Assembly (NCBI GenBank): GCA_030698565.1
Contig: JAUYJS010000008.1
Coordinates: 15,098-79,097, forward strand
Direction: 5' to 3'
Length of the DNA: 64,000 bases
From: Candidatus Shapirobacteria bacterium
Lineage (GTDB): Bacteria > Patescibacteriota > Microgenomatia > UBA12405
In this document: positions 951 to 52,544 of the stretch, piece after piece
Layout: each line of letters starts with the position of its first letter
Numbering within the stretch: position 1 is the first letter of the stretch
Notes under the pieces: generated by a model
Seen by the model: only the letters and a program-made list of their open reading frames with translations
Databases searched by the model: none
What the model was told of the DNA's origin: nothing
Position numbers and translations under genes: made by a program

Positions 951-1076
951 CTCGGTTCTGGCCACGACCTATCTTCAAGATCCCTTGCGGAAAGACTATT
1001 GTCAGTGCTAAAACGTTTCACTTCTCTGTTCGGAATGGGAAGAGGTGGTTCCATCTCGCTCCAGTGACCAGAACTG
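951..1076 (-). rRNA. rrf: 5S ribosomal RNA
   Basis: The reverse complement contains the hallmark CCCATTCCGAACAGAGAAGTGAAAC motif. Helix I ends pair (ttctggtca / tggccagaa). Length is about 125 nt. Confidence 0.85.
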
Positions 1077-1209
1077 AAAAACTAAAACAAAGTAATTATA
1101 AACTAATTTCTTGGCCTCTAAATAGAGTTGCCTAATCTGGCTCCTAAACCACAATAGAATTGTAGTCTAAGAGCCATACTATATAAAAAAGATTTCTTCG
1201 ATCTTTCCA

Positions 1210-4180
<2,971 letters not shown>

Positions 4181-4359
4181 TAGTTTTGGCAACTCAATTC
4201 AGTTGCCAAGAAATTGAAAGTCTTATAATTACTTTTTTCGATTCAATAAATTGTTAATGTGCAGTATTCAGTTTAAGGAAATAAATTTCTTTATTTCCTT
4301 ATTTCTAAATATCTCTTAAATGGATTTATCCACCGAAGTTCTGCTTTGCAGAACGTAGG

Positions 4360-4433
4360 TGGACCCAAGGAGAGTCGAACTCCTGATCTCCTCGTTGCAA
4401 ACGAGGCGCTTTAACCAACTGAGCTATGGGCCC
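4360..4433 (-). tRNA. tRNA-Ala (anticodon TGC)
   Basis: Reverse complement is gggcccatagctcagttggttaaagcgcctcgtttgcaacgaggagatcaggagttcgactctccttgggtcca. It folds as a cloverleaf with a 7-bp acceptor stem, anticodon loop tt-TGC-aa and TTCGA T-loop. CCA is not encoded. Confidence 0.9.
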
Positions 4434-4660: not shown

Positions 4661-5302
4661 TCACCAGTTTTTACCCATTTTTGCTTTAGCAAATTCTAGT
4701 CCAATTGGAATTATTGAAATTGCAATAATAACAACTACTACATAATGAAAATTAGCCTTAACAATAGGAAAATTTCCAAAATAAAATCCTCCAAATACAA
4801 ACAGAGCTACCCACACTAAACCACCAATAAAATTAAACCAAATAAATCTCCAATAATTCATTTTACCAACTCCCGCTACAAATGGAGCAAAAGTCCTCAC
4901 TATTGGTACAAACCTAGCCAAAATAATTGCCTTACCCCCATGTTTTTCGTAAAAATTAGTTGCTTTATCCAAATATTCTTTTTTCAAGAATCTGCTATTC
5001 ATGCTAAAAGCCCGAGGACCAATAAAATGACCAATCCAATAATTTATTGTATCACCCAAAAAAGCCGCCAAAAACAACAATAAAAATAAAATATAAACAT
5101 TAAAAGAACCAATTGCCGCCAAAGCCCCAGCCGCGAACAAAAGTGAATCACCTGGTAAAAATGGGGTAATTACAAAACCGGTTTCCATAAAAACCACCCC
5201 AAACAAAATTGCATAACTAAGCATTCCGTAATTTTGAATTACCAAAACCAAATTTTTATCTATATGCAAAAACAAATCAACCAAGTATTTTAAAATTGTC
5301 AT
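4661..5302 (-). CDS. DedA/SNARE-associated family membrane protein
   Basis: 213-aa ORF with typical DedA motifs (FMETGFVITPFLPGDSLLFAAGALAA ... ARFVPIVRTFAPFVAGVGKM). Confidence 0.75.
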   Translation of the reverse strand: MTILKYLVDLFLHIDKNLVLVIQNYGMLSYAILFGVVFMETGFVITPFLPGDSLLFAAGALAAIGSFNVYILFLLLFLAAFLGDTINYWIGHFIGPRAFSMNSRFLKKEYLDKATNFYEKHGGKAIILARFVPIVRTFAPFVAGVGKMNYWRFIWFNFIGGLVWVALFVFGGFYFGNFPIVKANFHYVVVVIIAISIIPIGLEFAKAKMGKNW

Positions 5303-5644: not shown

Positions 5645-6595
5645 TTAGTATATCACAGCTTTTTCCACTAAAATCTCCACAACTGCTTTAGCTGTATTTA
5701 TTTTAGTTGCTTTTTCAAAACCCTGAAATTGGCACTGTCTGTTTACTTCTAAAACATAGCTATTATCAAACTCATCTTTCATTATATCCACCCCACAATA
5801 ATCCAACCCACACACCTGTGCCACTTTTTCCGCCAATTCGCTATCTTCTTTGGAAATTTCCCAGCTTTCTACCTCTCCGCCCAAAGAAAAATTACTCCTA
5901 AATTCATCGCCAACTGCCGATCGTTTCATCGCTCCCAATGTTTTTCCACCCAGAACAATAACTCTCATATCCCATCTGGTCGACAAGCATTTCTGCCACA
6001 GATACATTCCCAAGCTCTTTTCATCAATTTTCTTAAGCACCGTTTTTAATTCTTTTTCGTTATTAATTTTTCGAACACTTTTTCCCTGAAACCCTCTTTC
6101 ATGTTTACAAATAATTGGATATTCCCAACCAAAAAAAGTATTTCTCCCATTTTCAAGGGGAGATGTCCGTAGGACAGAGGGGTTTAGAACTTGTTCTCTT
6201 GTATAAAAGATTTTGGTCGGTACCACCGAAATATCATTCACCACAAATACCCCATGTTGAGAAATTTTTCCCATTCTCGGCCAACTCAAATAACTCACTT
6301 CATTAGCACAAAAAATTTTATCTTTCAAAAGTTTTAGCAGTAAATTTCTACCTTCAATATATTTACCCGATTCAGTTCCAGCCACTCGGCACCACACCGC
6401 CAAAGTATTTTCTTCATTAATTTCTTTACCACATGCCAAAACTTTAGTTTTTCCATTTTCCACTTCAAAACTTAATTCTTTATACAACACTCGACTAACC
6501 TCCACTCCCAATTTTCCTGCCTCTTCTACTAATCTATTTACCTCATAGCTACTTTGCTGTGCTGACATGGTCAACACTAAAATTTTTTTATTCAT
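5645..6595 (-). CDS. RimK-family ATP-grasp amino-acid ligase (alpha-L-glutamate-ligase-like)
   Basis: 316 aa. The C-terminal half matches the RimK ATP-grasp core (RVIVLGGKTLGAMKRSAVGDEFRSNFSLGGEVE..VCGLDYCGVDIM...VLEVN). It contains one in-frame repeat-derived insert, LNPSVLRTSPLENGRNT. Confidence 0.7.
   Translation of the reverse strand: MNKKILVLTMSAQQSSYEVNRLVEEAGKLGVEVSRVLYKELSFEVENGKTKVLACGKEINEENTLAVWCRVAGTESGKYIEGRNLLLKLLKDKIFCANEVSYLSWPRMGKISQHGVFVVNDISVVPTKIFYTREQVLNPSVLRTSPLENGRNTFFGWEYPIICKHERGFQGKSVRKINNEKELKTVLKKIDEKSLGMYLWQKCLSTRWDMRVIVLGGKTLGAMKRSAVGDEFRSNFSLGGEVESWEISKEDSELAEKVAQVCGLDYCGVDIMKDEFDNSYVLEVNRQCQFQGFEKATKINTAKAVVEILVEKAVIY
6139..6188. repeat. Palindromic repeat copy A (diverged), in frame inside the CDS 5645-6595
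   Basis: tatttctcccattttcaaggggagatgtccgtaggacagaggggttta. Same architecture as copies B-D: a ctcccc/ggggag hairpin plus a gagggg tail. Confidence 0.8.
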
Positions 6596-6609
6596 ATGTT
6601 TATATGTAC

Positions 6610-6629
6610 GGGCGATTCATGAATCGCCC
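6610..6629. terminator. Intergenic GC palindrome gggcgattcatgaatcgccc (family copy 1)
   Basis: Perfect 9-bp arms (gggcgattc/gaatcgccc) with a 2-nt loop, lying between two minus-strand ATP-grasp genes. Confidence 0.5.
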
Positions 6630-6636
6630 CTACGAA

Positions 6637-7650
6637 TTATTTTTTCAATCCAACTAAAAATTTAACTATTTCCGCAGGTACATCAATTCCCGTTGCCTTC
6701 ATAAAACCTTTAAACTGAGGTCCTTTATTAACTTCCCAAATTACAGGTTTATTTATATCATAATTTCTAAAAGCCACATCGACTCCGGCCACCCACAACC
6801 CACACACCTCCGCCGCTTTAACCGCTAAATCTTCAATTTCTTTGGGTAATTTAGCTACTTCCACCCTTCCTCCCGCACTATAATTATTTAAAAAATGATT
6901 CTTAGGAGCCGAACGTTTAATCACCCCAAGTACCTTTTTTCCCAAAACCAACACCCGGTAGTCCCCATCATTTTCAATATATTCTTGCAACATATATCTT
7001 CGGCCTTCTTCTGTTTCTGACTTTCTCAAATCCATCACCAATTTTTCTAATTCAGCCAAATTATTAGCCTTAAAAACCCTCGTTCCCCTATCCCCACCAC
7101 TACCCTTGAGAATTACTGGAAAAGTAAAAAAATATTTCTCCCCTTTATCAAGGGGAGATGTCGCAGCAGCGACAGAGGGGTTTTTCTGTTCTGTCTCTTT
7201 CATAAATTCATACAAATACCACAAACTACCATAAACAGTTTTAGGCACATCAATTCCCGCTCGCTTCATCACCAACATTTGGTAAGCCTTACACGTATCC
7301 GAAGGCCTACCTTTCAAAACCAACGGATCCACCACAACTGGCGTTTTATATTTCTCCCCTTTATCAAGGGGAGATGTCGCAGCAGCGACAGAGGGGTTTT
7401 TCACCGAATCTAAAATCAAATTTACTTCTTCCCAGTGTTTTCCTGTTGTTCTAAAAAACAAAACATCATAATCTTTAATATTTTTTTTTCTTCTTAATTT
7501 TACTTCCCCAAAATCAGTATCAAAACAAACTTCATTATAAGACACCAAATCCAAAACCACCCCCAGTTTCTTCGCCGCTCTTTTTATCATCATCAAATGC
7601 TGACTAACTTTTCCTCCAAAAAATAGGGCAATTCTTGTTTTTTTATTCAT
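6637..7650 (-). CDS. RimK-family ATP-grasp ligase carrying two identical in-frame repeat insertions
   Basis: 337 aa. The RimK-like C-terminus is YRVLVLGKKVLGVIKRSAPKNHFLNNYSAGGRVE...GVDVAF...IWEVNKGPQFKGF. The peptide KNPSVAAATSPLDKGEKY occurs twice and is encoded by two identical ~54-nt DNA repeats. Confidence 0.7.
   Translation of the reverse strand: MNKKTRIALFFGGKVSQHLMMIKRAAKKLGVVLDLVSYNEVCFDTDFGEVKLRRKKNIKDYDVLFFRTTGKHWEEVNLILDSVKNPSVAAATSPLDKGEKYKTPVVVDPLVLKGRPSDTCKAYQMLVMKRAGIDVPKTVYGSLWYLYEFMKETEQKNPSVAAATSPLDKGEKYFFTFPVILKGSGGDRGTRVFKANNLAELEKLVMDLRKSETEEGRRYMLQEYIENDGDYRVLVLGKKVLGVIKRSAPKNHFLNNYSAGGRVEVAKLPKEIEDLAVKAAEVCGLWVAGVDVAFRNYDINKPVIWEVNKGPQFKGFMKATGIDVPAEIVKFLVGLKK
7133..7186. 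repeat. Palindromic repeat copy B, in frame inside the CDS 6637-7650
   Basis: tatttctcccctttatcaaggggagatgtcgcagcagcgacagaggggttttt, identical to copy C. Confidence 0.85.
7347..7402. repeat. Palindromic repeat copy C, in frame inside the CDS 6637-7650
   Basis: Identical to copy B. On the coding strand it encodes KNPSVAAATSPLDKGEKY. Confidence 0.85.
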
Positions 7651-7665
7651 ATTTTTATTTATAAT

Positions 7666-7716
7666 TATTTCTCCCCTTTTTAAGGGGAGATACGGCGAAT
7701 GCCGAGAGGGGTTTAG
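7666..7716. repeat. Palindromic repeat copy D, intergenic, overlapping the stop codon of 7713-9038
   Basis: attatttctccccttttttaaggggagatacggcgaatgccgagaggggtttagc. It may double as a terminator hairpin. Confidence 0.75.
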
Positions 7717-9038
7717 CTTTTTGCCGAAATTAAAAACCCTCCCAAATCTTTTCTACCCAATAAAAATTTGGTTCTCAATTTATGTCGATCAGCCACATTG
7801 ACTGCGGTCACAATTTTCCGACCGTTTAACCAAAAAGTCAAACCCACCACTGGCCGATCATTATTTTTACCTAAAGCTGATTTATAATGCCGATAATACA
7901 ATATTTTATTTTCATCCAAAAGACCTAGTTCTTGAGCTAAAACTCTATCTATTGAACTCCTATAAGCTCCGGTATCGATCTTAGCCGTCACCTCTTTGAA
8001 ATTTTTCTTGCCTTTTCCAGTTTTAATTTTAATATTTTCCAAAGGACCTACTAACTTAACCTTTTCTTTTTCCTCAACTTTATCAGAGAAACTTTCACCA
8101 AATAAATATTTAGCCAAAGTAATGGCGTGTTCTGTACTTCTAACTTCTATTTCTTCCAGTTTATCCATCCTCGCTTTTAACCCCGCCTTATTGCATATTT
8201 GAATCGATAAACCCGGCCTAGCATTAACTTCCAAAACCATTGGCCCTTTTTCTTTATCCAACACCACATCCACACCCAAAAACCCCAAACCCGGAATAGC
8301 CTTTTGACAATTTACTGCTGTTTCCAAAATCTCTTTCCAAAAAGGAATTTTTATACCATTAACTTTTCTCATTTTCTTTTTGCCATAATCATAAATTCGT
8401 CTTATCGGTTCTCCCTTACCTTCAATTCCAAAAGTGGTAATTCCCGAAGCCAGATCAATCCCCAAACCCACCGCCCCCTGTTGTAAATTCGCCTTACCAC
8501 CACTTTTTTCTGTTGGAATTCTAAACATGGCCATTACCGGCACTTTGTTGTAGACAATTACCCGAATATCCGGCGTCCCGACCTTAGTAATCGCCAAAAA
8601 CATCGGATGAATTCTAATTCTCTCTTCCACCAAAACCGGATCCGATGCTCCGTGCATACTATAACGACCTGCCAAAACATCTTGACAATGAAGTTTAATA
8701 TCTTGAGTAGTTATAATCTGGCCATTCATTTTCTGCCATTCACCAGCCCATTTGGCTCTGCGTCGAATAATTATAATTCCCTCACCACCGTATCCTGATT
8801 CCGGTTTGATCACAAAATTTCCTTCCAAATCTTCCCAGCGAAAGTTATCTAATTCTTCAATCGTCTTAAATCTTTTGATTAGCAAAGGCACACCAATATT
8901 TGCTTTGGCCAATATCTTCTTAGTTCTATATTTACTATCCGCTACCATCCGATCAGCCGTTGTATTTTTTCTCAAATAAACCTTATTCCTTTCGTTTTTA
9001 GTTAAAAACTGACGATAAGGTTTCAAAAAGGCAAACAT
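7713..9038 (-). CDS. ATP-grasp domain protein fused to a C-terminal retropepsin-like (Zn_protease / RimK-associated aspartic peptidase) domain
   Basis: 441 aa. The N-terminal ATP-grasp signature is FVIKPESGYGGEGIIII ... MVLEVNARPGLS. The C-terminal IDTGAYRSSID carries the D-T-G-A retropepsin catalytic motif. Confidence 0.6.
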   Translation of the reverse strand: MFAFLKPYRQFLTKNERNKVYLRKNTTADRMVADSKYRTKKILAKANIGVPLLIKRFKTIEELDNFRWEDLEGNFVIKPESGYGGEGIIIIRRRAKWAGEWQKMNGQIITTQDIKLHCQDVLAGRYSMHGASDPVLVEERIRIHPMFLAITKVGTPDIRVIVYNKVPVMAMFRIPTEKSGGKANLQQGAVGLGIDLASGITTFGIEGKGEPIRRIYDYGKKKMRKVNGIKIPFWKEILETAVNCQKAIPGLGFLGVDVVLDKEKGPMVLEVNARPGLSIQICNKAGLKARMDKLEEIEVRSTEHAITLAKYLFGESFSDKVEEKEKVKLVGPLENIKIKTGKGKKNFKEVTAKIDTGAYRSSIDRVLAQELGLLDENKILYYRHYKSALGKNNDRPVVGLTFWLNGRKIVTAVNVADRHKLRTKFLLGRKDLGGFLISAKS

Positions 9039-9040
9039 AT

Positions 9041-9925
9041 CTACTTCTTTTTGTTCGAATCTCTAATCGCACTTTTAAACCTATTAAACTCAGCCAATCT
9101 TATCCCAGTATAATTCCCCACCACTAAATTGATAATTAATACCATTAATACCATTAATTCAGGATTGTATAAAATAATATTTTGAATCCAATTAAAGTTC
9201 ATAGTAATTGACCCAAAAATAGCCAATATTAACGTTCCCACAGTTAAGCTTCTGGCTTCCTTTCGACTTTTTACCAATTGAGTCCGCACAAATTCTTCCG
9301 CCAAAAGCACCATAAACAGAATTGGGAAAATAGAAATCTGACTCAAATCGACAAGTTTAAAAAACGAAGTAATCAGCATTAATCCAAATGTCCCCAAAGA
9401 AATAAACAAAAGATTGATTGATCTGGCTGGCCAAAAATGAATTCTTAATCGTCTTAAAATTAGATTAGACAATAACGATACTATTAATATCATGGCGAAC
9501 AAAAGCAATCCACCAAAAATACCCGTCGCCAAAAAGGTAATCGCAATCATCGTCGGCATAAAAGTCCCATAACCAGTCAAACCAAAAATATAGTGCAACA
9601 CCGACACTAAAGTAGCAATCAACGGCAACATCAATAGTAGAACTATAGTGTTTGTCGCCACTCCCCGAGTCATTGCCCACTTAATTAATATTCTAATAGT
9701 ATTAAATCCATTCCATTTACCTACATCATAACGCACCTGTTTAATTTCTGGTTCGGTAATATTGGCTGAAACTTCAGCCACCACAGTCGGCACTATTGTA
9801 GGCGACACACTAGTTACTGTTGGAGTAACAGATGTTTTTCCGGTAACTGCCAATATTTGGCTTCCACAAAACAAACTCAATAGTATTAATACTGAAATTA
9901 GGAAAATGGGGGTAATTTTTCTCAT
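9041..9925 (-). CDS. Polytopic (about 7-TM) membrane protein with signal peptide; candidate 7TM partner of the ATP-grasp/retropepsin system
   Basis: 294 aa. N-terminal signal peptide, then a Thr/Val/Pro-rich segment and about 7 hydrophobic helices. Its stop is 2 nt from the start of the ATP-grasp-retropepsin gene, so they are probably co-transcribed. Confidence 0.45.
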   Translation of the reverse strand: MRKITPIFLISVLILLSLFCGSQILAVTGKTSVTPTVTSVSPTIVPTVVAEVSANITEPEIKQVRYDVGKWNGFNTIRILIKWAMTRGVATNTIVLLLMLPLIATLVSVLHYIFGLTGYGTFMPTMIAITFLATGIFGGLLLFAMILIVSLLSNLILRRLRIHFWPARSINLLFISLGTFGLMLITSFFKLVDLSQISIFPILFMVLLAEEFVRTQLVKSRKEARSLTVGTLILAIFGSITMNFNWIQNIILYNPELMVLMVLIINLVVGNYTGIRLAEFNRFKSAIRDSNKKK

Positions 9926-10010
9926 ATGTTCGGTAGTTTATATTTTTTTAAAGTGTAAACGTTGCGTATTATATCACCAATTAGCTATCCACCTATTATC
10001 ACCTATTTAG

Positions 10011-10018
10011 TGTATAAT
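10011..10018 (+). promoter_or_regulatory. Extended -10 promoter element TGTATAAT, 10 nt upstream of the ATG at 10029
   Basis: tttagTGTATAATttccatatctATG. No Shine-Dalgarno is visible, suggesting a leaderless or near-leaderless transcript. Confidence 0.35.
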
Positions 10019-10028
10019 TTCCATATCT

Positions 10029-10358
10029 ATGACACAGTTACTCGCCGTAAACATAGGGGAGATCCCTCTGAGAACCGGTCAAAGTCTCGCAACTACTTAT
10101 CCAACAGTGTCTATTCTTTTCTCAATTATTATCAAAAATGCCCTTACTATAGTTGGTCTTATTTTTCTTGGCCTTTTGATTTACGGCGGTCTTTCTTATA
10201 TAATCGGTGCAGGTAGTGATGATGCCAAAAAAGCCGAACAAGCTAAGGGAATTATAACTAACGCTTTAATCGGATTTGCGATAGTCTTTCTAAGCTACTT
10301 TATAATCCAAATAATACAAATTATTACCGGAATTGACATCCTTAATCCAACTCTTTAA
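10029..10358 (+). CDS. Small two-helix membrane protein, VirB2/TrbC-like T4SS pilin candidate (paralog 1 of 6)
   Basis: 109 aa. Hydrophobic helix, then a charged loop (GAGSDDAKKAEQAKGIITNALIGFAIVF), then a second helix. Motif G(G/A)xxYIxSxGDxxKxxxAxxxITNAxIG is shared with the 5 downstream paralogs. Confidence 0.5.
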   Translation: MTQLLAVNIGEIPLRTGQSLATTYPTVSILFSIIIKNALTIVGLIFLGLLIYGGLSYIIGAGSDDAKKAEQAKGIITNALIGFAIVFLSYFIIQIIQIITGIDILNPTL

Positions 10359-10701
10359 ACCAAAATTAATATTAGCCGCTGACCCATTATTTGGTTCAGT
10401 TTCTAATCCAACCAAATACAATAGTAAGAACGGAGAAGGTCTCTTTCTTTTTTTAAGTAATATTTTCAAATTAATAGCCGTTATTGGCGGTATTTTTTTA
10501 ATTTTCCAAATAATTATGGCTGGTTTTGCCTATATTTCAGCCAGTGGTGATCCCAAAAAAACCGAAGCCGCTTGGACCAAAATTTGGCAAAGCATCCTCG
10601 GCTTACTCATTATTGCTTCAGCCTTTATTATTGCCGGTGTTGTTGAACGACTAACTGGCATCAATATTATTAATCCTGTCATTTATGGTCCAACTAATTA
10701 A
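10333..10701 (+). CDS. VirB2/TrbC-like pilin candidate (paralog 2)
   Basis: 122 aa with AGFAYISASGDPKKTEAAWTKIWQSILGLLIIASAFII. The start is uncertain because the ORF overlaps the previous one by 26 nt. Confidence 0.45.
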   Translation: MTSLIQLFKPKLILAADPLFGSVSNPTKYNSKNGEGLFLFLSNIFKLIAVIGGIFLIFQIIMAGFAYISASGDPKKTEAAWTKIWQSILGLLIIASAFIIAGVVERLTGINIINPVIYGPTN

Positions 10702-11050
10702 ACCGATTTTAGCTATAGGTAGTACTTCTTTTTCCTTAACCGGTCCAGGTATTGATCCTGGCACCGACCCCACTACAAAACTTGAAACTGTTATAAGCAA
10801 CACCATTGCTGTTTTAACCATTGTCGCTGTTATATTTTTCGTTTTACAAATTATTTTTGCCGGTTACGCTTTTATTTCTTCCCGTGGTGATGAAAAAAAA
10901 TTGGAAATTGCCAAGGACAGATTAACCAACAATGTCTTAGGCTTATTTATAGTTGTAGTTGCCGTTGGCTTAGGCGCCTTAATTGCCAAATTAGTCGGTA
11001 TACCCAATATTCTCGATCTAAATCAAACATTTACCAAAATGGGATTATAA
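10685..11050 (+). CDS. VirB2/TrbC-like pilin candidate (paralog 3)
   Basis: 121 aa with AGYAFISSRGDEKKLEIAKDRLTNNVLGLFIVVVAV. Confidence 0.45.
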   Translation: MVQLIKPILAIGSTSFSLTGPGIDPGTDPTTKLETVISNTIAVLTIVAVIFFVLQIIFAGYAFISSRGDEKKLEIAKDRLTNNVLGLFIVVVAVGLGALIAKLVGIPNILDLNQTFTKMGL

Positions 11051-11056
11051 AAAAAT

Positions 11057-11383
11057 ATGATTACCAATCCTCTTCTAAAAAACAACGACACTATAGTCAC
11101 CAACCCAAATGCCTATGTTAGCAACGTTATTGGTGCCGTTATTTCTATCTTTTTTATCGTGGGCATCATTTACTTCACCTGGAATGTCGTTTTTGCTGGT
11201 TACCATATGATCAACTCCCAAGGAGAGAGCAAAAAAGTCGAAGAAGCCAGAAGTCACTTAACCAATGCTGTTATTGGTATTTTTGTCGTCTTTTCTATTT
11301 TTGCTCTTCTCAAATTAGTTATTACCATTTTAGGCTTAAATATCGATACTAATAATCTCTTAATTTCACTACCATCCCTTTAA
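11057..11383 (+). CDS. VirB2/TrbC-like pilin candidate (paralog 4)
   Basis: 108 aa with AGYHMINSQGESKKVEEARSHLTNAVIGIFVVFSIF. Confidence 0.45.
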   Translation: MITNPLLKNNDTIVTNPNAYVSNVIGAVISIFFIVGIIYFTWNVVFAGYHMINSQGESKKVEEARSHLTNAVIGIFVVFSIFALLKLVITILGLNIDTNNLLISLPSL

Positions 11384-11446
11384 TATTTAAATAAATCCTG
11401 ATACAATAAATTATTATTTACAAATTAATATAAAAACCCAACAAAA

Positions 11447-11836
11447 ATGATCAAAAAAATAGCTAACCGCCTAAAAATGTTCTCTTTAATTCCTTCTGTT
11501 TACGCTGCAGGCGAGACAATTCAAATAGCTCCAACAGATACGGTTTGGGATAAGATTGTCAAAAACCTGACCGTCGGTAGTATAATTGGCGGCTTAATTA
11601 ATTTAGTGTTAATTGTTGCTTCGTTAATTTTCTTCTTTATCTTGGTCATTGGCGGTATCAAATGGATTGTTTCCAATGGCGATGAAAAAAGTGTCGAAAG
11701 TGCCCGATCTCAAATAACCAATGCCCTCATCGGTTTAGCTATCGTTTTTGCTGCCTGGGCAATCCTAAAGTTAATCGGTATACTTTTTGGACTTGATCTT
11801 ACTTCTGGATTCACCGTCCCTACATTTACAAAATAA
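11447..11836 (+). CDS. VirB2/TrbC-like pilin candidate (paralog 5)
   Basis: 129 aa with GGIKWIVSNGDEKSVESARSQITNALIGLAIVFAAWAILKLI. Confidence 0.45.
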   Translation: MIKKIANRLKMFSLIPSVYAAGETIQIAPTDTVWDKIVKNLTVGSIIGGLINLVLIVASLIFFFILVIGGIKWIVSNGDEKSVESARSQITNALIGLAIVFAAWAILKLIGILFGLDLTSGFTVPTFTK

Positions 11837-11860
11837 TTTCTGAAAAGTTAATTAATCAAT

Positions 11861-11884
11861 CCCCGCTGCGGCGGGGTTTTTGTT
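11861..11884 (+). terminator. Rho-independent terminator after paralog 5
   Basis: ccccgctgcggcgggg followed by tttttgtttt. Confidence 0.7.
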
Positions 11885-11889
11885 TTAAT

Positions 11890-11988
11890 ACGTCATTGCG
11901 ATGAGGCTTTGCGACGTGGCAATCTCATTAATAATTTAGACTAACTCACTCCCAAATAAGATTGTCACGCTTCGCTCGCAATGACGTG
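11890..11988. repeat. About 100-nt intergenic imperfect palindrome (12-bp perfect terminal inverted repeat acgtcattgcga / tcgcaatgacgt)
   Basis: Inverted repeats at 11890-11901 and 11977-11988, with nested partial complementarity (gcgacgtggcaatc / gattgtcacgc). It lies between pilin paralogs 5 and 6 and is followed by a second cggggtttttgttt tract. Confidence 0.5.
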
Positions 11989-12011
11989 CTTAGTACGGGG
12001 TTTTTGTTTAT

Positions 12012-12019
12012 TGTATAAT
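12012..12019 (+). promoter_or_regulatory. Extended -10 TGTATAAT, 9 nt upstream of the ATG at 12028
   Basis: ttatTGTATAATcaacacatATG. Confidence 0.35.
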
Positions 12020-12027
12020 CAACACAT

Positions 12028-12444
12028 ATGTTCAAACTCTTTTCTTATTTTTTACCATTAATTATTTTTGTTTCACTGATCTTTCCTTCAATTAATCCAG
12101 TCTTTGCTCAAAAAGAATGGAAACAAATTAATTCCAAATGTATTAGCTCTGTTTCTGGCGCCGAAGACGTCGCCACTATCCAAGGCTTCGAATGTATTTT
12201 CTACAATATTCTTCAAGTCATAGTTTATATTGCCGGAATTGCTTTCCTTTTTATGTTTATTACTGGCGGTTATCAATATCTTTTTTCAGCCAATGACCCA
12301 AAAAAAACCGCCCAAGCCTCTTCCACTCTCACCATGGCTATTTTGGGAGTTATCGGTATAATTGCCTCTTGGTTTATCCTCCGACTAATCTCTAATTTTA
12401 CTGGTATTACCAATTTAACCAACTTCGTCATTCCTGGCCCATAA
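12028..12444 (+). CDS. VirB2/TrbC-like pilin candidate (paralog 6, with signal peptide)
   Basis: 138 aa with GGYQYLFSANDPKKTAQASSTLTMAILGVIGIIASWFILRLI. Confidence 0.45.
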   Translation: MFKLFSYFLPLIIFVSLIFPSINPVFAQKEWKQINSKCISSVSGAEDVATIQGFECIFYNILQVIVYIAGIAFLFMFITGGYQYLFSANDPKKTAQASSTLTMAILGVIGIIASWFILRLISNFTGITNLTNFVIPGP

Positions 12445-12491: not shown

Positions 12492-13334
12492 ATGCGTTAT
12501 TATCGGATTATTCTTTCTATATCAATTTTTGTCTTGTTTGTATTTTTATTTTCTGTTCCAATCAAAACCCTAGCCATTGAAATTACTACCGATCTTCCAA
12601 CTCCTGAAGTCCAAACAACCCCAGTTTCCACAGGCTCTACCACTGTGCCCACAACCCCAGCTCCGACAAAAATAAGTGAATTTATGAGTATCTGGGGGTC
12701 ATTCATCAACTTTTTTAAGTCATTTACTAAGTCCTATGCCGTTCAACCAAACAATCCTCCATCTTTAACTAATTTTGGTGACATCAACAATTCCGAAAAC
12801 ACCTATGATTCTGTCACTCGATCTACTGATTATAGTGATCAACTTAGTCAAAAAAACCAATACATCAGTGATGTAATTAATGGCATATACGAAGACAAAA
12901 ATATGTCTTCGTGTCCCAGTGATTCCGATATTACTATCAAAAAAGTAGCTTTTTATTTAATTAAAGTCAAAAACACTTCTCTAAATGTCGAATCTCAAAA
13001 AGAAACAGATTTTTTAAATAGTCCCGAATTTATTAACTTTAGTATCGATCCTTCTTTATATTCTTGTTACGACCAAATTTACGATCAATTTCCTTCCATT
13101 CCTCAAGGTGGTGAAAATAACGCCGAAAACGCCGCTGGTAGTCAGCAATTAAATAATTCTTTGCGTAGAATTATGCCCGACCGAGAAGTTGGTACTGCAG
13201 TTGGAAACAATAATGATAAAAACAAATATACCAACCAAAATAATGAACTACAGAAAGATGCTGGTAAATTTATGTCTCCCGAAAATTTTACTGTAAAAGA
13301 TTTTACGAATTTACGTCCTGCCGGTTGGCAATAA
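12492..13334 (+). CDS. Secreted protein, Thr/Pro-rich N-terminal region, function unknown (T4SS-locus associated)
   Basis: 280 aa. Signal peptide MRYYRIILSISIFVLFVFLFSVPIKTLA. No recognizable catalytic motifs. Confidence 0.4.
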   Translation: MRYYRIILSISIFVLFVFLFSVPIKTLAIEITTDLPTPEVQTTPVSTGSTTVPTTPAPTKISEFMSIWGSFINFFKSFTKSYAVQPNNPPSLTNFGDINNSENTYDSVTRSTDYSDQLSQKNQYISDVINGIYEDKNMSSCPSDSDITIKKVAFYLIKVKNTSLNVESQKETDFLNSPEFINFSIDPSLYSCYDQIYDQFPSIPQGGENNAENAAGSQQLNNSLRRIMPDREVGTAVGNNNDKNKYTNQNNELQKDAGKFMSPENFTVKDFTNLRPAGWQ

Positions 13335-13394: not shown

Positions 13395-14966
13395 ATGTTT
13401 ATCAAGCAATTTCTCCACCATCTCAACCACCGCGACACCAAGATTTTAACCAAACCAAAAATTCCTCGACTTTCAAAATTCTGTTTAGTTTTTTTAGTTT
13501 TAATTTCCAGTATATATTTAGTCAAAGTAATTAAAGCCCAAAATATAATCGAGCAAGTTCAAAAAGCTCAAACCAAAGGCAACAACGCCGAATCTTGGCA
13601 TTTGAATGCACTTGAAACTACTGCCACCACATTAGCTACATCTTTATCTGGTAAGTTAGAATTCAATCCAGACGGATCTTTTAAATCTAGTTATTTACCT
13701 GGCGGAGCTATCGGAATGACCACAAATTTTATTGCCACTCTTTACAACCCTCCTGCTTCCGGCATTGAATATATTGCCCAAGTAAAAAATCAATTTCTGG
13801 GCGGCAATCCAGTCTACGCCCAAGGAGCCGGTTTCGCTGGTTTACAACCGATTCTTCCACTTTGGCGAGGATTTAGAAATGTTGTTTACGTTCTTTCAGC
13901 TTTAGTATTTGTCATTATCGGCTTAATGATTATGTTTCGAGTTAAAGTCAGTCCTCAAGCAGTTATCAATATTCAAAATGCCATTCCTCAAATAATCATT
14001 ACTCTAATATTAGTTACTTTTTCTTACGCTATCGCTGGTTTATTAATAGATATATCCACATTTTTTCAAACCATGGTTATGGCCCTTCTTTTTCAAAGTT
14101 ATGGTCAAAACGGTTTACTTTATCACACAGGTGCAATAAATTATAATTTTTCTCAACTTGCAAATCCTGGCTTCTGGAACGTTTTCAGTTTAATGAATAA
14201 AGCAGCACCAGCCGGGTTTCTTCTTTTGATGTCCGAGGTAATTAGCTTATTGATGGGACTAATTATCGGTATTACTCCAGCGGCTATCGGTGGTCCAGCT
14301 GTCGGTTTAGTTACTGTCGGTATCGGATTAAAATTTGGCTTTTTAGGAGGAATAATTTTATTCTTAATTATTGGAATCATAATTTTTATTTGGATACTCA
14401 AGTTTTTCTTCGGACTTATTAAAGTTTATGTTAGTCTTATTATTCGAATAATTTTAGCTCCTCTAGAAATTGGCATGGGAGCTTTTCCCAATTCAAAAAT
14501 TGGATTTTCTAGCTGGTTAATTAGTGTCTTGGCCGATCTTTCTGTCTTTCCTATCTCGATACTTTTTTTAGTATTTGCTAATATTCTTATTGAAACTTCG
14601 TCTCAAGGTTTATGGCGCCCCAGCCTTCTTGCTTTCACCGCACCTTTTGACTTAATTGGTATAGCTATAGGTTTAGCTACCCTCATGATGTTATCTCAAT
14701 TACCTGAATTAATTCCTCAGTTTGTTTTCCAGCTTAAACCATCACCTCTTGGTAATGCCGTTGGCGAAAGCTGGAAAAATATGCCATTTAGAGGATTAGC
14801 CTCCACTATTGGTGGTGAAGTCGGATACGCAACTGGCGGAGCCATAACTGAAGCAATTGGTAACAGATTAGAAAGAAGAGCCGGAGAAACAATTGACCGA
14901 CCAGCTAAAAAAAGACCACCTCTGGCCAATGAAAAAAGAAGACCTAGACGGCTTTTTGGATGGTAG
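13395..14966 (+). CDS. Polytopic membrane protein, VirB6/TrbL-like candidate
   Basis: 523 aa. Signal/TM, then a ~130-aa extracytoplasmic domain, then 6 or more TM helices, then a basic C-terminal tail (KKRPPLANEKRRPRRLFGW). It follows the pilin array directly. Confidence 0.4.
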   Translation: MFIKQFLHHLNHRDTKILTKPKIPRLSKFCLVFLVLISSIYLVKVIKAQNIIEQVQKAQTKGNNAESWHLNALETTATTLATSLSGKLEFNPDGSFKSSYLPGGAIGMTTNFIATLYNPPASGIEYIAQVKNQFLGGNPVYAQGAGFAGLQPILPLWRGFRNVVYVLSALVFVIIGLMIMFRVKVSPQAVINIQNAIPQIIITLILVTFSYAIAGLLIDISTFFQTMVMALLFQSYGQNGLLYHTGAINYNFSQLANPGFWNVFSLMNKAAPAGFLLLMSEVISLLMGLIIGITPAAIGGPAVGLVTVGIGLKFGFLGGIILFLIIGIIIFIWILKFFFGLIKVYVSLIIRIILAPLEIGMGAFPNSKIGFSSWLISVLADLSVFPISILFLVFANILIETSSQGLWRPSLLAFTAPFDLIGIAIGLATLMMLSQLPELIPQFVFQLKPSPLGNAVGESWKNMPFRGLASTIGGEVGYATGGAITEAIGNRLERRAGETIDRPAKKRPPLANEKRRPRRLFGW

Positions 14967-48943: not shown

Positions 48944-49156
48944 ATGCAAACAGTAACTTTTAGTATTCCCGACATGCACTGTCCTTCTTGTCCTAAATTA
49001 ATCAAATTGACTTTACTAGACATCGATGGGGTTAATGAAGTTGAAGCTTCGTTAGACACAAAAAAAGTAGTTGTTAATTTTGATTCTCAAAAAACTTCAG
49101 TTGTTTCACTTATTAATTCAATCAAAGAAACTGGATATACCGCCAGTCTTAAATAA
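48944..49156 (+). CDS. copZ: Copper chaperone CopZ (HMA domain)
   Basis: 70 aa with the MHCPSC metal-binding motif. Near-duplicate of the first HMA domain of the downstream ATPase. Confidence 0.8.
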
Positions 49157-49160
49157 ATCT

Positions 49161-52100
49161 ATGACTCAAGATATAAAATCAAAGCAGGTGATTTTATCTG
49201 TTCCCGATATGCACTGTCCTTCTTGTCCTAAATTAATTACTCTCGGCCTCAAGGATCAATCCGGAGTTATTTCTGTTAATGCTTCTTTGGAAAATAAACA
49301 AGTCGTTGTTAATTTTGATCCGGAAAAAATTAAAATCAACGATTTATTAGCCAACATAAAAGAATCTGGATATACAGCCATATCCAAAGAGAACGGAGAT
49401 ATGCCTGTTATCGAAAATGCACCACCTGAATTACCTACAAAAACAATTACTCCAACTACTGTTTCTGGTACCCAGGTTGCCCTTTTAAATTTAACTGGTA
49501 TGCACTGTTCTTCATGTGCTGGTTTAATTGAAAGGTCTCTTAAAAAAATACCCGGCGTGACTGAAGTCAATGTTAATTTTGCCTCGGAAAAAGCCCGGAT
49601 TGTTTACAATTCCAACACAACAAAGGTTGAAGATTTGATTAAAGGTGTCGAATCAGCTGGTTACCACGCCTCACAGCCTGGTGAAAAAGAAGAAAACCAG
49701 AAAGAAAAACGAGCCCACGAAATTAGTTATTGGTCCAAAAAATTTCTCCTAGGTCTGGTTTTGAGTTTACCCATGATTCTTTTCATGGTTTACGATTTCA
49801 CTAATGCCATTCCATTTAAGACCAGCATTATGCCTTACGCCGGAATTCTCTCACTGCTTTTATCCACCCCGGTTCTTTTTTATGTCGGATCAAACTTTTT
49901 CGCTGGTTTTTGGTCAGCCCTAAAAATGCGAACTTTTTCTATGGATTCGTTAATTGCTATCGGTACCGGTACTGCTTTCACCTACAGTCTTTACGAATTC
50001 ATTAAATATGCTTCTGAAACAGGTTCCATTATTGGTTTAAATGGCACAAAGGTTCCAGATCTTTATTTTGAAGTAGCGGCATTTTTAATCACCTTTGTTT
50101 CTTTAGGTAAATATCTTGAAGCCAAAGCCAAAGGCAAAACTTCCGAAGCGATTGAAAAACTCACAGGGTTAGCTCCTAAAACCGCCCGAGTTATGCGTCA
50201 AGGTCAACCAATCGATATCCCAGTAGAACAGGTCGTTGTGGGGGATATCATTGTTGTTCGTCCTGGTGAAAGAATTCCAGTTGATGGTGAGGTAGTTTCT
50301 GGTTATTCAGCTGTCGATGAATCGATCCTTACGGGTGAATCTTTACCTGTTGAAAAACAAATTGGGTCTAAAGTTTATACAGCTTCTATCAATAAAACCG
50401 GTTCCTTCGAATTTAAAACTACAAAAATTGGTGCCGACACAGCCTTAAGTCAAATCGTAAAATTAATTGAAGATGCCCAAGGGTCTAAGGCGCCAATCCA
50501 AGCTGTTGCCGACAAAATTTCTTCAATTTTCGTTCCAGTGGTTATTGGAATTGCCATTCTTACCTTCATAGTTTGGTATTTTTTACTTAGTGCCACTTTA
50601 ACCTTTTCTCTTTTAGCTTTTGTTGCTGTTATCGTTATTGCCTGTCCTTGCGCCTTAGGCTTAGCTACTCCGACTTCAATCATGGTCGGAACTGGCAAAG
50701 GGGCCGAATATGGTGTTTTGATAAAAGGTGGTGAACCTTTAGAAATGGCTGAAAAAATCAAGGCCATCGTCTTTGACAAAACTGGTACCCTAACTAAGGG
50801 TAAACCAGAAGTAACCGACTTTATAAATTACCTGCCAGGTGATCAAACTATTCTTTCAGTTTTGTATTCAATTGAACAAAAAAGCGAGCATCCCTTGGCC
50901 GAAGCCATTGTTCGTTATGGTCAAAATACTGGTGCTGTTAATTATGCCATTGAAGACTTTCAAGCCATCCCAGGTCATGGTGTCAAAGCCACCGTTAATG
51001 GGCAAGTCTATTTTGTAGGTAATCGTAAACTTTTGGAAATCAACCAAATTCCTCTAACTTCTGGTTATGACATGGAAAGATTAGAAAACGATGGTAAAAC
51101 CGCCATGGTCATAGCTAATCAAGAAAAAGTTTTAGGTTTAATTGCTGTAGCCGATCAAGTTAAAGAATCATCTGCTTCAGTTGTCTCCAAGCTAACAAAA
51201 ATGGGTATAACTGTTTATATGATTACTGGCGACAACCGTCGTACAGCTGATGCAATCGCTAAACAGGTCGGTATTACTAATGTATTAGCTGAAGTTTTAC
51301 CTCAAAATAAAGCTGAGGAAGTTAAAAAGCTTCAAGATTCTGGTATTAAAGTTGCCATGGTTGGTGATGGTATTAATGACGCTCCAGCTCTAACTCAAGC
51401 TGATTTAGGTATAGCCATGGCCTCTGGTGCCGATATTGCCATGGAATCAGGAAATATTGTAATAATGACCAACGACTTAAACGGCGTTTTAACTGCCATA
51501 AGTCTATCGCGGGAAACTGTTGGTAAAATTCGTCAAAACATGTTTTTTGCCTTATTTTATAACGTCTTAGGTATCCCGATTGCAGCCCGCGCCTTAGCTT
51601 TTATGGGTCTTATTCTTAAGCCTGAGCTAGCTGGCTTGGCTATGGCATTGTCTTCAGTTTCAGTTGTGACCAATTCTTTAACCCTAAAATTATTTAAGCC
51701 AGGTAAATTCAATTGGATTTCTCGTTTAGCCCCTTTTGTTATGGTGGGTCTATTTTTAGGTGTATTTATCGAATTTGCTCGATTTTCTTCCCAAATGGGA
51801 GGATTAGAGTCTGGGGCCAAATCTGGGCCGGCTGCCTATATTCAAAAAGCTCCAGTTATTAAAACAGTCATAAATAGGCTTTTGGTCGACAATGCTTCCA
51901 AGATTGGTTTTGCGGAAAACCTCCCTAAGTTATTTATAGGTGTCAACAAATTACCTGAATCAATAATGCTAGCCGAGGGCTCCTCCGATCTTTCAGAACA
52001 GGGAAGTGTCATTTTAGGTGCCAAAGAAGCTGCCATGATGACAGAAGAAGGTTTAATTAGTGGTATCAATTCTGAGATCCCTGACTTTTTCGGGCTACCC

Positions 52101-52544
52101 AAATTAAAAGTTGTCGGCATCCTGGCTCCTACTGGCACGATTCTAGACGAATATCATATCTTTAGTAAAGATAGCTTAGAAGGTTTAACCAAAGCTAATA
52201 ATGATTTTCTAATTACAGAAACTCCCCTAGAAGACCTTAAACTTTTTTATCTTTATGACAGTGCCAATATCCCTAAGGCTTTAGATTCACTTATCAACCC
52301 AGCCAAAACTTCATATACGATTGATGGAACTAAATATCTTTCGACCGTAATTGGTTATGATGAGGCCAAAATGATGATTAAAGAAAAACTTTTCCAAAAA
52401 AAGTTTGACACCATCAAAGATATTTTTGGCAACAATATTATAATTACCGGTCTTCCTAAAAAGACTCTTACTAGTCTTGATATGATGCACTTTGTACCCA
52501 GGGAATTTAAAGATAATTTTATTTCCACCTCTGAAAATAAATAA
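49161..52544 (+). CDS. copA: Copper-translocating P1B-type ATPase CopA with two N-terminal HMA domains and a ~300-aa C-terminal extension
   Basis: Start reassigned to ATG 49161 (MTQDIKSK), directly after the copZ stop. Motifs: MHCPSC, GMHCSSC, TGES, CPC ([12 protein letters not shown]), [17 protein letters not shown]. About 300 aa follow the last TM, with no counterpart in canonical CopA. Confidence 0.85.

Follow-up and report, generated by a model that had tools for sequence, protein, structure and literature searches.

The window analysed here is a 64-kb stretch of a Candidatus Shapirobacteria genome, from the Microgenomatia of the candidate phyla radiation (CPR). On its minus strand, four co-directional genes encode a module in which ATP-grasp ligases, a retropepsin-like protease and a membrane protein with seven transmembrane (TM) helices (7TM) are brought together. 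The most upstream gene, TM7 (9041-9925), is an open reading frame (ORF) of 294 amino acids (aa) for a RloB-type 7TM membrane protein. It is followed by FUS (7713-9038, 441 aa), a fusion of a RloC-like ATP-grasp ligase with a RimB/RloA-like retropepsin, by RK2 (6637-7650, 337 aa), a RimK-family ATP-grasp ligase carrying two in-frame repeat insertions, and by RK1 (5645-6595, 316 aa), a second RimK-family ligase with one such insertion. The successive intergenic gaps are of 2, 62 and 41 nucleotides (nt). RNA folding reveals a strong hairpin in both the FUS-RK2 and the RK2-RK1 gaps; that of the RK2-RK1 spacer (6596-6636, minus strand), GGGCGATTCATGAATCGCCC, is separate from the repeats and has a folding energy of -17.8 kcal/mol (z -4.5). 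An earlier reading of the same DNA, hereafter the original prediction, had described four tightly spaced genes on this strand, and the ORFs lie exactly where it placed them.

The names used above come from two systems studied in Pseudomonas. The rloABC genes of P. aeruginosa encode a secreted DTGA retropepsin (RloA), a protein combining an inactive transglutaminase domain with a 7TM part (RloB) and an ATP-grasp protein of the cytoplasm (RloC) (Lormand et al., 2025, mBio, PMC12239564). RloA is a dimer that cuts runs of at least eight Glu residues via K46, R114 and R137, and a triple protease mutant has its defects suppressed when rloB or rloC is deleted (PMC12239564). RimB, also a dimeric retropepsin, cuts the poly-Glu tails made by RimK, which it binds and stimulates (PMC11957791).

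Domain content of the four proteins

Profile matches were judged against the Pfam gathering score (GA) and the NCBIfam equivalog cut-offs. The N-terminal part of FUS (residues 17-295; 8154-8990, minus strand) matches PF14397, ATPgrasp_ST, at 3e-60, with 204 bits against a GA of 31.4. FUS also covers nearly the full TIGR02291 model ('alpha-L-glutamate ligase-like protein'), which we take to be RloC, with 262 bits (5e-78). Because this score is under the 314-bit equivalog cut-off, FUS is a homologue of TIGR02291 rather than a certified equivalog. When the FUS structural model is compared with the PDB using Foldseek, the top matches are RimK (4iwx, 5zct) and ArgX/LysX, at 1e-9 to 1e-8. K78, E138/E139, R159, K182/N184, D257 and E270/N272, presumably at the canonical positions of the ATP-grasp motifs, do not vary among 30 orthologues. 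The original prediction had mentioned that the ligases might turn out to be ordinary paralogues of D-Ala-D-Ala ligase (Ddl) or glutathione synthetase (GshB). This was rejected, since RimK, LysX and ArgX are the best matches in both sequence and structure. Hydropathy predicts no TM segment in FUS. The protein is 100% identical to one from a Shapirobacteria metagenome-assembled genome (MAG) at NCBI, and its orthologues are 65-84% identical.

The retropepsin domain follows at residues ~333-437 (7728-8042, minus strand), with the DTGA motif at residues 355-358 (7965-7976). Residues 376-432 match PF05618, Zn_protease/RimB-like, at 3.9e-7 (30.5 bits for a GA of 27), and the domain weakly matches NCBIfam RloA2/RloA3. 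Against PDB sequences, single-sequence and whole-protein FUS profiles gave weak results for the protease domain, and a domain-only profile of diverse orthologues was needed. With 22 of them, this profile recovers 9g59 (1.4e-8), 9g58 (5e-7) and 2pma (8e-5), then ApRick, a Rickettsia retropepsin (8e-3), and Ddi1 (0.1). The possibility that the DTGA motif lies outside a retropepsin fold, which had been raised at the outset, is thus set aside by the match to solved RloA-type retropepsins, and the claimed fusion of an ATP-grasp domain with a DTGA peptidase is borne out by PF14397 and PF05618 occurring in one 441-aa ORF. The FUS model is all-beta in the protease region. D355-T-G-A, R395 (in an RPV motif) and R418 (in DR) are invariant in both ortholog alignments, K353 (K-x-DTGA) is invariant in the closer ortholog set, and a GR-x-D-L motif is also conserved. 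K353-x-D355, R395 and R418 align with identical residues in 9g59, 9g58 and 2pma; judging from the motifs, K353, R395 and R418 would correspond to the poly-Glu-coordinating K46, R114 and R137 of RloA. The protease domain contains no Cys and, because FUS has no TM segment either, it is predicted to be cytoplasmic.

TM7 belongs to PF14402, 7TM_transglut (6e-24, 85.3 bits against a GA of 25), and matches NCBIfam RloB in the C-terminal 7TM part of that model (3e-15). Topology was assessed from AlphaFold2 (AF2) helices and the K/R distribution (positive-inside rule). An N-terminal signal-type helix (residues 7-25) precedes a low-complexity linker rich in Thr, Pro and Val (residues 26-90), predicted to be extracytoplasmic, and then seven TM helices, in keeping with the signal-peptide protein of about seven TM segments originally described. 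Because of the K/R-rich loops and tail (158-166, 216-224, 276-294) and of the AF2 helices, the protein would be oriented N-out/C-in, with a basic cytoplasmic tail. Pfam and NCBIfam profile searches find no transglutaminase domain in TM7. Among the matches listed, 120 out of 120 homologues are likewise proteins of ~290 aa with PF14402 only and without a transglutaminase domain. Foldseek comparison of the AlphaFold model of TM7 with the PDB gave nothing significant (best E 1.5).

RK2 and RK1 both exceed the GA of PF08443, RimK (3e-26 for RK2 and 2e-28 for RK1; 92.5 and 99.6 bits between the two). The presence of two RimK-family ligases therefore stands at the level of the Pfam family, but both fall just under the cut-off of NCBIfam rimK_fam (127.9 and 133.7 bits for a cut-off of 143.4). 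The best PDB matches of RK2 are RimK structures (5zct/4iwx, 4e-16), and that of RK1 is Pseudomonas RimK (7qyr, 4.5e-13), LysX/ArgX being also among the best for both proteins. At residue ~256, RK2 of this genome has a Leu (HFLNN) where all 36 orthologues at least 54% identical (alignments of loci L001-L058) have R or K (EF[R/K]NN). The site aligns with R211 of the RimK substrate loop, and this strain may have an impaired or retuned RK2. For the four proteins taken together, the families expected from the original prediction (RimK/ATPgrasp_ST, PF05618 and 7TM) were recovered.

Conservation of the module and permutations of its domains

Among the GTDB species genomes scanned, 289 have a relative of FUS, and the best 80 loci were compared by searching their six-frame ORFs against the window proteins, 72 of them being informative for linkage. 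The retropepsin domain is kept in FUS at 79 of the 80 loci. In 72/72 informative loci (FUS identity 46-84%), the gene directly upstream of FUS, on the same strand, is TM7, and at least one RimK-like gene is found downstream of FUS in 67/72, with a copy number varying from 0 to 3. FUS is the most conserved protein of the neighbourhood, with identities of 65-84% as compared with 50-66% for TM7 and 37-69% for the neighbouring pilins. The genes thus occur together at all informative loci, which answers the doubt, voiced with the original prediction, that they might not co-occur in related genomes. The same comparison does not support the view that the fusion architecture is novel, since it is conserved across the Microgenomatia and is one of several domain permutations.

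These permutations were found by searching 1.84 billion representative proteins with the protease domain only, which gave 352 relatives at E <= 1e-3. Pfam scans and sequences of these relatives reveal ATPgrasp_ST–retropepsin proteins as well as small stand-alone proteins. A signal-anchor–retropepsin–7TM architecture is recurrent, Chloroflexota MAGs included, and at the fetched loci, from Chloroflexota and others, an ATPgrasp_ST gene comes next downstream, overlapping the retropepsin–7TM gene or directly adjoining it. In P0260 (L201 6001-7464), two tandem retropepsins precede the 7TM part, and the next genes encode an ATP-grasp protein and then a glutamate dehydrogenase. P0384 (657 aa; L205 2008-3981) contains signal anchor, retropepsin, 7TM and ATPgrasp_ST in a single chain. 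Finally, P0371 (798 aa, from a JGI contig) is a triple fusion, ATPgrasp_ST–retropepsin–MATCAP carboxypeptidase. No pilin was found at the fetched retropepsin–7TM two-gene loci.

The permutations lead us to consider the ligase, the 7TM protein and the protease as a self-contained functional unit without a dedicated encoded acceptor. They provide independent evidence that the three act on one product. They also imply that the protease can sit either outside the membrane or inside, the latter as in this window. When outside, it occupies the place of the transglutaminase domain of RloB, where TM7 has a linker only. Any model of Rlo function must accommodate a protease found on either side of the membrane.

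In-frame repeats, pilin genes and other neighbours

The original prediction had remarked that the operon is invaded by in-frame repeats, and such a repeat, of ~55 nt, was indeed found, in frame three times and once between genes, all four copies of the window falling inside the operon. In the sense of the genes, the repeat reads AAACCCCTCT, a short variable hairpin, ATCTCCCCTT, a loop and AAGGGGAGAAAT. It can be described as bipartite, the left box being CCCCTCT and the conserved hairpin TCTCCCCTT/AAGGGGAGA, with a variable hairpin that may or may not stand between them. The copies are all in the minus-strand orientation. Copy A (7348-7402), in frame in RK2, encodes NPSVAAATSPLDKGEKY in an indel-tolerant loop, and its RNA folds into two hairpins (-27.7 kcal/mol, z -6.5). 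Copy B (7132-7186), also in frame in RK2, is 100% identical to copy A; its hairpin and T-run give an intrinsic-terminator-like score inside the RK2 ORF. Copy C (~6131-6185) is in frame in RK1, at a position homologous to that of copy B, and has compensatory changes in hairpin 1. The intergenic copy D (~7658-7714) starts at the stop codon of FUS. Among copies, hairpin 1 differs through compensatory changes, and the two-hairpin fold has a z of about -6. RK1 and RK2 being only 32% identical, the insertions are younger than the duplication from which these two genes arose.

From one species to another, the two RK2 loops concerned and the homologous one in RK1 hold differing insertions or lack them altogether (L001-L058 alignments). 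These insertions are unrelated, in frame and of 5-40 residues, with recurring peptides such as ...FSSGESAKQAQ... and ...PSLxKEG..., and one orthologue has a third site. On the evidence of these alignments, the RK2 and RK1 loops are insertion hot spots of several repeat families. A side observation concerns FUS itself, the orthologues of which have lost their stop codon at eight loci (L027, L031, L033, L034, L044, L046, L053 and L055) and read 15-45 residues into the 3' repeat, giving variable tails after the protease domain.

Related copies of the repeat occur at other Shapirobacteria loci. An exact metagenome scan with the conserved hairpin found at least 120 stretches, from which 80 loci were returned (L081-L160), with GC contents of 0.29 to 0.64. 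None of these 80 loci carries operon genes, although operon copies were expected, and no conserved gene lies next to the repeat. Since the 80 loci are unrelated, the repeat is widespread, and its distribution says nothing about the operon. About two-thirds of the metagenome copies share the left box, with the conserved hairpin coming immediately after it in some and a variable hairpin in the others; of the distinct long spacers, 83% fold, as compared with 36% of shuffled ones. In 21 of the 80 loci, the repeat lies within a stop-free frame of at least 150 codons. No match was found in Rfam at gathering or permissive thresholds, and neither terminal inverted repeats nor target-site duplications nor a transposase partner of the repeat were identified. 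Rickettsia palindromic elements and terminator-like miniature inverted-repeat transposable elements such as SPRITE have been reviewed (PMC10969869). Like them, the present repeat is a short palindrome found in frame in genes or, terminator-like, after stop codons; it is nonetheless much shorter (~35-55 nt versus ~150 nt), and it behaves like the Rickettsia elements in tolerating residence in frame. We interpret the repeat as a widespread, non-autonomous, terminator-like palindromic element, which is not specific to the ligase–protease–7TM system.

Upstream of TM7, a divergent intergenic region of 103 nt (9926-10028), in which promoter matches are weak and not more numerous than expected by chance, leads to six genes of the plus strand (10029-12444). 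The original prediction had noted six small membrane protein genes divergent from the operon (9925/10029); all six are VirB2-like pilins of type IV secretion systems (T4SS), matching PF18895, T4SS_pilin (28-39 bits for a threshold of 26.6). They belong to the operon's context rather than to its core. PF18895/PF04956-type membership, a two-TM hairpin and a tandem arrangement of divergent paralogues, 26-38% identical among themselves, are all found in this array. Each pilin has a K/R-rich loop between its two TM segments and a short neutral C-terminal tail with 0-1 K/R. Hypervariable C-termini had been proposed; the short tails do vary, but so does the N-terminal region. VirB2-like pilin arrays have been described in Patescibacteria/Microgenomatia, and an association with ATP-grasp, retropepsin and 7TM genes was not reported there (Microb Genom 2025, PMC12102498). 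The adjacency of the pilin array and TM7 across the Shapirobacteria appears unreported.

Beyond the array, a 280-aa protein (12492-13334, plus strand) is poorly conserved and has sub-threshold matches only. A 523-aa polytopic membrane protein (13395-14966, plus strand), with no Pfam match at E <= 0.1, is encoded 3' of the pilins at all Shapirobacteria loci and is likewise found with the module at locus L052, a rearranged relative; it may be a divergent form of the VirB6-like partner that Microgenomatia are said to be 'missing'. At L052, a 902-aa Glu/Lys-rich protein without Pfam match (6312-9020, minus strand) lies between the gene resembling that of the 523-aa protein and TM7.

Downstream of the operon, a DedA/VTT membrane protein (PF09335, 3e-25; 4661-5302, minus strand) is encoded 342 nt after RK1, on the same strand. 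It was rejected as a member of the unit, as it is found 0.8-5 kb further downstream in other Shapirobacteria loci. 23S rRNA, 5S rRNA and tRNA genes follow (956-4433), with no adjacent 16S gene; the rRNA operon appears to be unlinked, the DedA/VTT gene and the operon occupying the place expected for 16S. Woesebacteria-type loci are flanked by nusG-rplKAJL, thioredoxin and DsbA genes, uppS and a methyltransferase gene, a flank seen at none of the compared Shapirobacteria loci, and the ribosomal-protein and thioredoxin neighbours were considered as lineage synteny only. An anti-phage defence role was also rejected, PADLOC having given no match for the four operon proteins and three neighbours.

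Two further observations concern the window at large. The GC skew is persistently and strongly negative (-0.1 to -0.46) across most of positions 1-48000, reminiscent of the disparity in composition between strands that was reported from a Microgenomates genome (PMC7143001). At 48953-49528, three tandem repeats of ~235-290 nt each encode a C-x-x-C motif (MHCPSC). They stand at the start of, or upstream of, a 1157-aa ORF (49071-52544) and look like the heavy-metal-binding domains of P-type ATPases.

Proposed function, alternatives and known relatives

Considering these properties, a mechanism may be envisaged. In the cytoplasm, the RloC-like ATP-grasp domain of FUS would add amino acids to a carboxylate acceptor at the expense of ATP, and RK1 and RK2 would probably carry out the same reaction. 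The amino acid would most likely be L-glutamate, joined by alpha-peptide linkages into short acidic chains or tails. The fused retropepsin would dimerise within an oligomer and cut the chains, thereby setting their length or recycling them. TM7, translationally coupled to FUS, would hold the enzyme at the membrane and would most likely pass the product, or information about it, across. Synthesis of Glu chains by ATP-grasp ligases, trimming by the retropepsin and membrane coupling by the 7TM protein is the function towards which we lean, if only slightly; the broader reading of the operon as one for peptide ligation and trimming, in the line of the original prediction, is supported. The proposal builds on the domain identities, the conservation of catalytic and motif-aligned residues, the strict linkage and the fusions in multiple permutations, and we infer which amino acid is used, the nature of the acceptor and any step of transport. 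As to the acceptor, a free polymer or a ubiquitous molecule is favoured by the existence of self-contained two-gene versions.

Several points weigh against this proposal. TM7 has neither a transglutaminase-like domain nor a solved relative, and a role in transport is pure inference. The models are of moderate confidence, with predicted local distance difference test (pLDDT) values of 71 for FUS and 66 for TM7. As judged by eye, neither RK1 nor RK2 conserves S7 and R8, the RimK residues that hold the growing poly-Glu chain, and RK2 of this genome has lost a conserved basic residue. Rlo and the retropepsin–7TM fusions have an extracytoplasmic protease, that of the present operon being cytoplasmic, so that the site of cleavage is not the same and the logic of the systems may differ as well. 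Finally, we know of no biochemistry on any ATPgrasp_ST/RloC-type ligase, nor, to our knowledge, has the amino-acid substrate been established even in Pseudomonas.

Other acceptors have been considered. A cell-envelope amidoligase would attach amino acids to a non-protein acceptor, such as a lipid-linked glycan or a precursor of peptidoglycan or teichoic type, with TM7 flipping or holding the acceptor. The Pfam name of PF14397, 'sugar-transfer associated ATP-grasp', points in this direction, as do the envelope-related Rlo phenotypes (osmotic tolerance, beta-lactam sensitivity and cell shape; PMC12239564), the DedA/VTT protein encoded just downstream and the Wzx/Wzy-like genes found 15 kb away in the window. 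Such a mechanism appears rather unlikely, however, because it leaves no role for a conserved endopeptidase with poly-Glu-type binding residues, while the DedA linkage is unstable in other loci and a glycosyltransferase is absent from the conserved core at the compared loci. Alternatively, RK1 and RK2 would add Glu to the C-terminal end of ribosomal protein S6 (RpsF), the protease would trim the tail and the 7TM protein would be a regulator or an anchor only. That the conserved core consists of TM7 and the RloC-type ligase, with RimK paralogues varying from 0 to 3 copies, argues against this idea, even though RimK is the nearest relative of RK1 and RK2 among solved structures and the protease is cytoplasmic, Cys-free and RimB-like. 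Adjacency to nusG-rplKAJL in Woesebacteria-type loci and to the 23S-5S rRNA genes in this window could also be put forward in its favour, but this ribosomal neighbourhood is convergent and lineage-specific. In addition, the one CPR S6 seen, at a distant relative's locus (L057), ends with ...LLIVIE, without acidic tail. The 64-kb window contains no rpsF and no ORF with an acidic C-terminus. Glutamylation of S6 is, in our view, an unlikely function of the operon.

The pilins had been presented as 'obvious' substrates in the original prediction. In this hypothesis, the ligases and the protease would modify the VirB2-like pilins before or during membrane insertion, for instance by trimming at the C-terminus and by amino-acid addition or cyclisation. 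VirB2/TrbC pilins of other systems are C-terminally processed and cyclised. The divergent array adjoins TM7 in 45/45 Shapirobacteria-type loci, despite pilin identities of ~50%. At L052, where FUS is 59% identical, a rearranged second linkage is seen, two same-strand downstream pilin genes overlapping a RimK-like gene, and it lends genuine support to a connection. Because of this conserved linkage and of the co-operonic arrangement at L052, it may be imagined that, in Shapirobacteria and relatives, the module has been recruited to trim the variable pilin ends and to add amino acids or cyclise them, thereby diversifying or activating an episymbiosis pilus. An ATP-grasp-dependent pilin modification exists in Klebsiella, with another enzyme family and another pilin type (PMC13419641). 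This linkage is nevertheless lineage-restricted: by hidden Markov model search, pilins lie within 10 kb at 0/24 of the other, distant Microgenomatia loci, Woesebacteria-type loci have none, and the two-gene modules of Chloroflexota and others lack them. Moreover, the K/R-rich loops would place the pilin C-termini outside the cytoplasm, where FUS, RK1 and RK2 are not, and the tails are not acidic. The pilins are thus not obvious substrates, and their modification by the module is possible but unlikely. Still more improbable is the view that the locus is simply decaying in this genome, repeat invasion and the RK2 substitution being signs of degeneration. The three in-frame insertions, two of which are identical and therefore recent, the terminator-like copy inside RK2 and the Leu at a site occupied by R or K in 36 orthologues could be read in this way. 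Against this, the four ORFs are intact, FUS and TM7 are highly conserved, and each insertion has a length divisible by three and sits in a loop where many species accommodate different insertions.

Glutamate-chain synthesis and trimming coupled to the membrane would also be of interest beyond this locus. That Microgenomatia keep the module in the tiny genomes typical of the CPR, with FUS more conserved than its neighbours, suggests an important function in the envelope or the proteome. In Pseudomonas, the Rlo system affects antibiotic tolerance and biofilms. The network of fusions, together with strong conservation in reduced genomes, offers a handle on what Rlo-type systems make, and FUS, which is small and soluble, would be a convenient reagent for a product search in vitro.

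A system of this kind has reportedly been foreseen: in 2009, in Mol Biosyst 5:1636, Iyer, Abhiman, Burroughs and Aravind are said to have predicted one that associates an ATP-grasp protein, an acid peptidase and a 7TM/inactive-transglutaminase protein. As far as the Pfam family names allow one to judge, the present operon has the same triad of families, for which peptide synthesis or tagging would likewise be predicted, and the link drawn originally to such a comparative-genomics prediction agrees with the domain families found. A more distant analogy, and only an analogy, can be drawn with the tubulin tyrosine ligase/MATCAP cycles, where C-terminal addition by an ATP-grasp enzyme is opposed by a dedicated peptidase; unlike in these cycles, the window contains neither a MATCAP domain nor a tubulin-like substrate.

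The comparison with Pseudomonas is closer. It shows that the term 'uncharacterised', applied to the system in the original prediction, is no longer wholly appropriate, since genetic and biochemical work on rloABC and rimABK is available (PMC12239564, PMC11957791). With RimABK and the RimK–RimB pair, the operon shares ATP-grasp ligases of the Pfam RimK family and a cytoplasmic, Cys-free retropepsin partner (PMC11957791, PMC10092738, PMC7343187). The physical binding of RimB to RimK in Pseudomonas is replaced here by a covalent ligase–protease fusion. In contrast to RimABK, however, the protease is carried by the RloC-type ligase and not by a RimK-type one, a 7TM partner is always present, RimA is not seen in the operon and an S6 acceptor is not evident. 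With RloABC, the operon shares a co-operonic set made of an ATPgrasp_ST/TIGR02291-type ligase, a PF14402 7TM protein and a PF05618 DTGA retropepsin, in which the basic residues aligned with the poly-Glu binders of RloA are kept. The NCBIfam equivalog cut-offs are nevertheless missed. Unlike RloA, the protease follows the ligase C-terminally in one fused chain, has neither a signal peptide nor the Cys pair forming a disulfide, and is cytoplasmic; unlike RloB, TM7 lacks the inactive transglutaminase domain. Furthermore, one or two additional RimK-family ligases belong to the operon, and the host is a member of the CPR rather than a Gammaproteobacterium. The module is thus a Microgenomatia variant of an RloABC/RimBK-type system and not a new kind of system.

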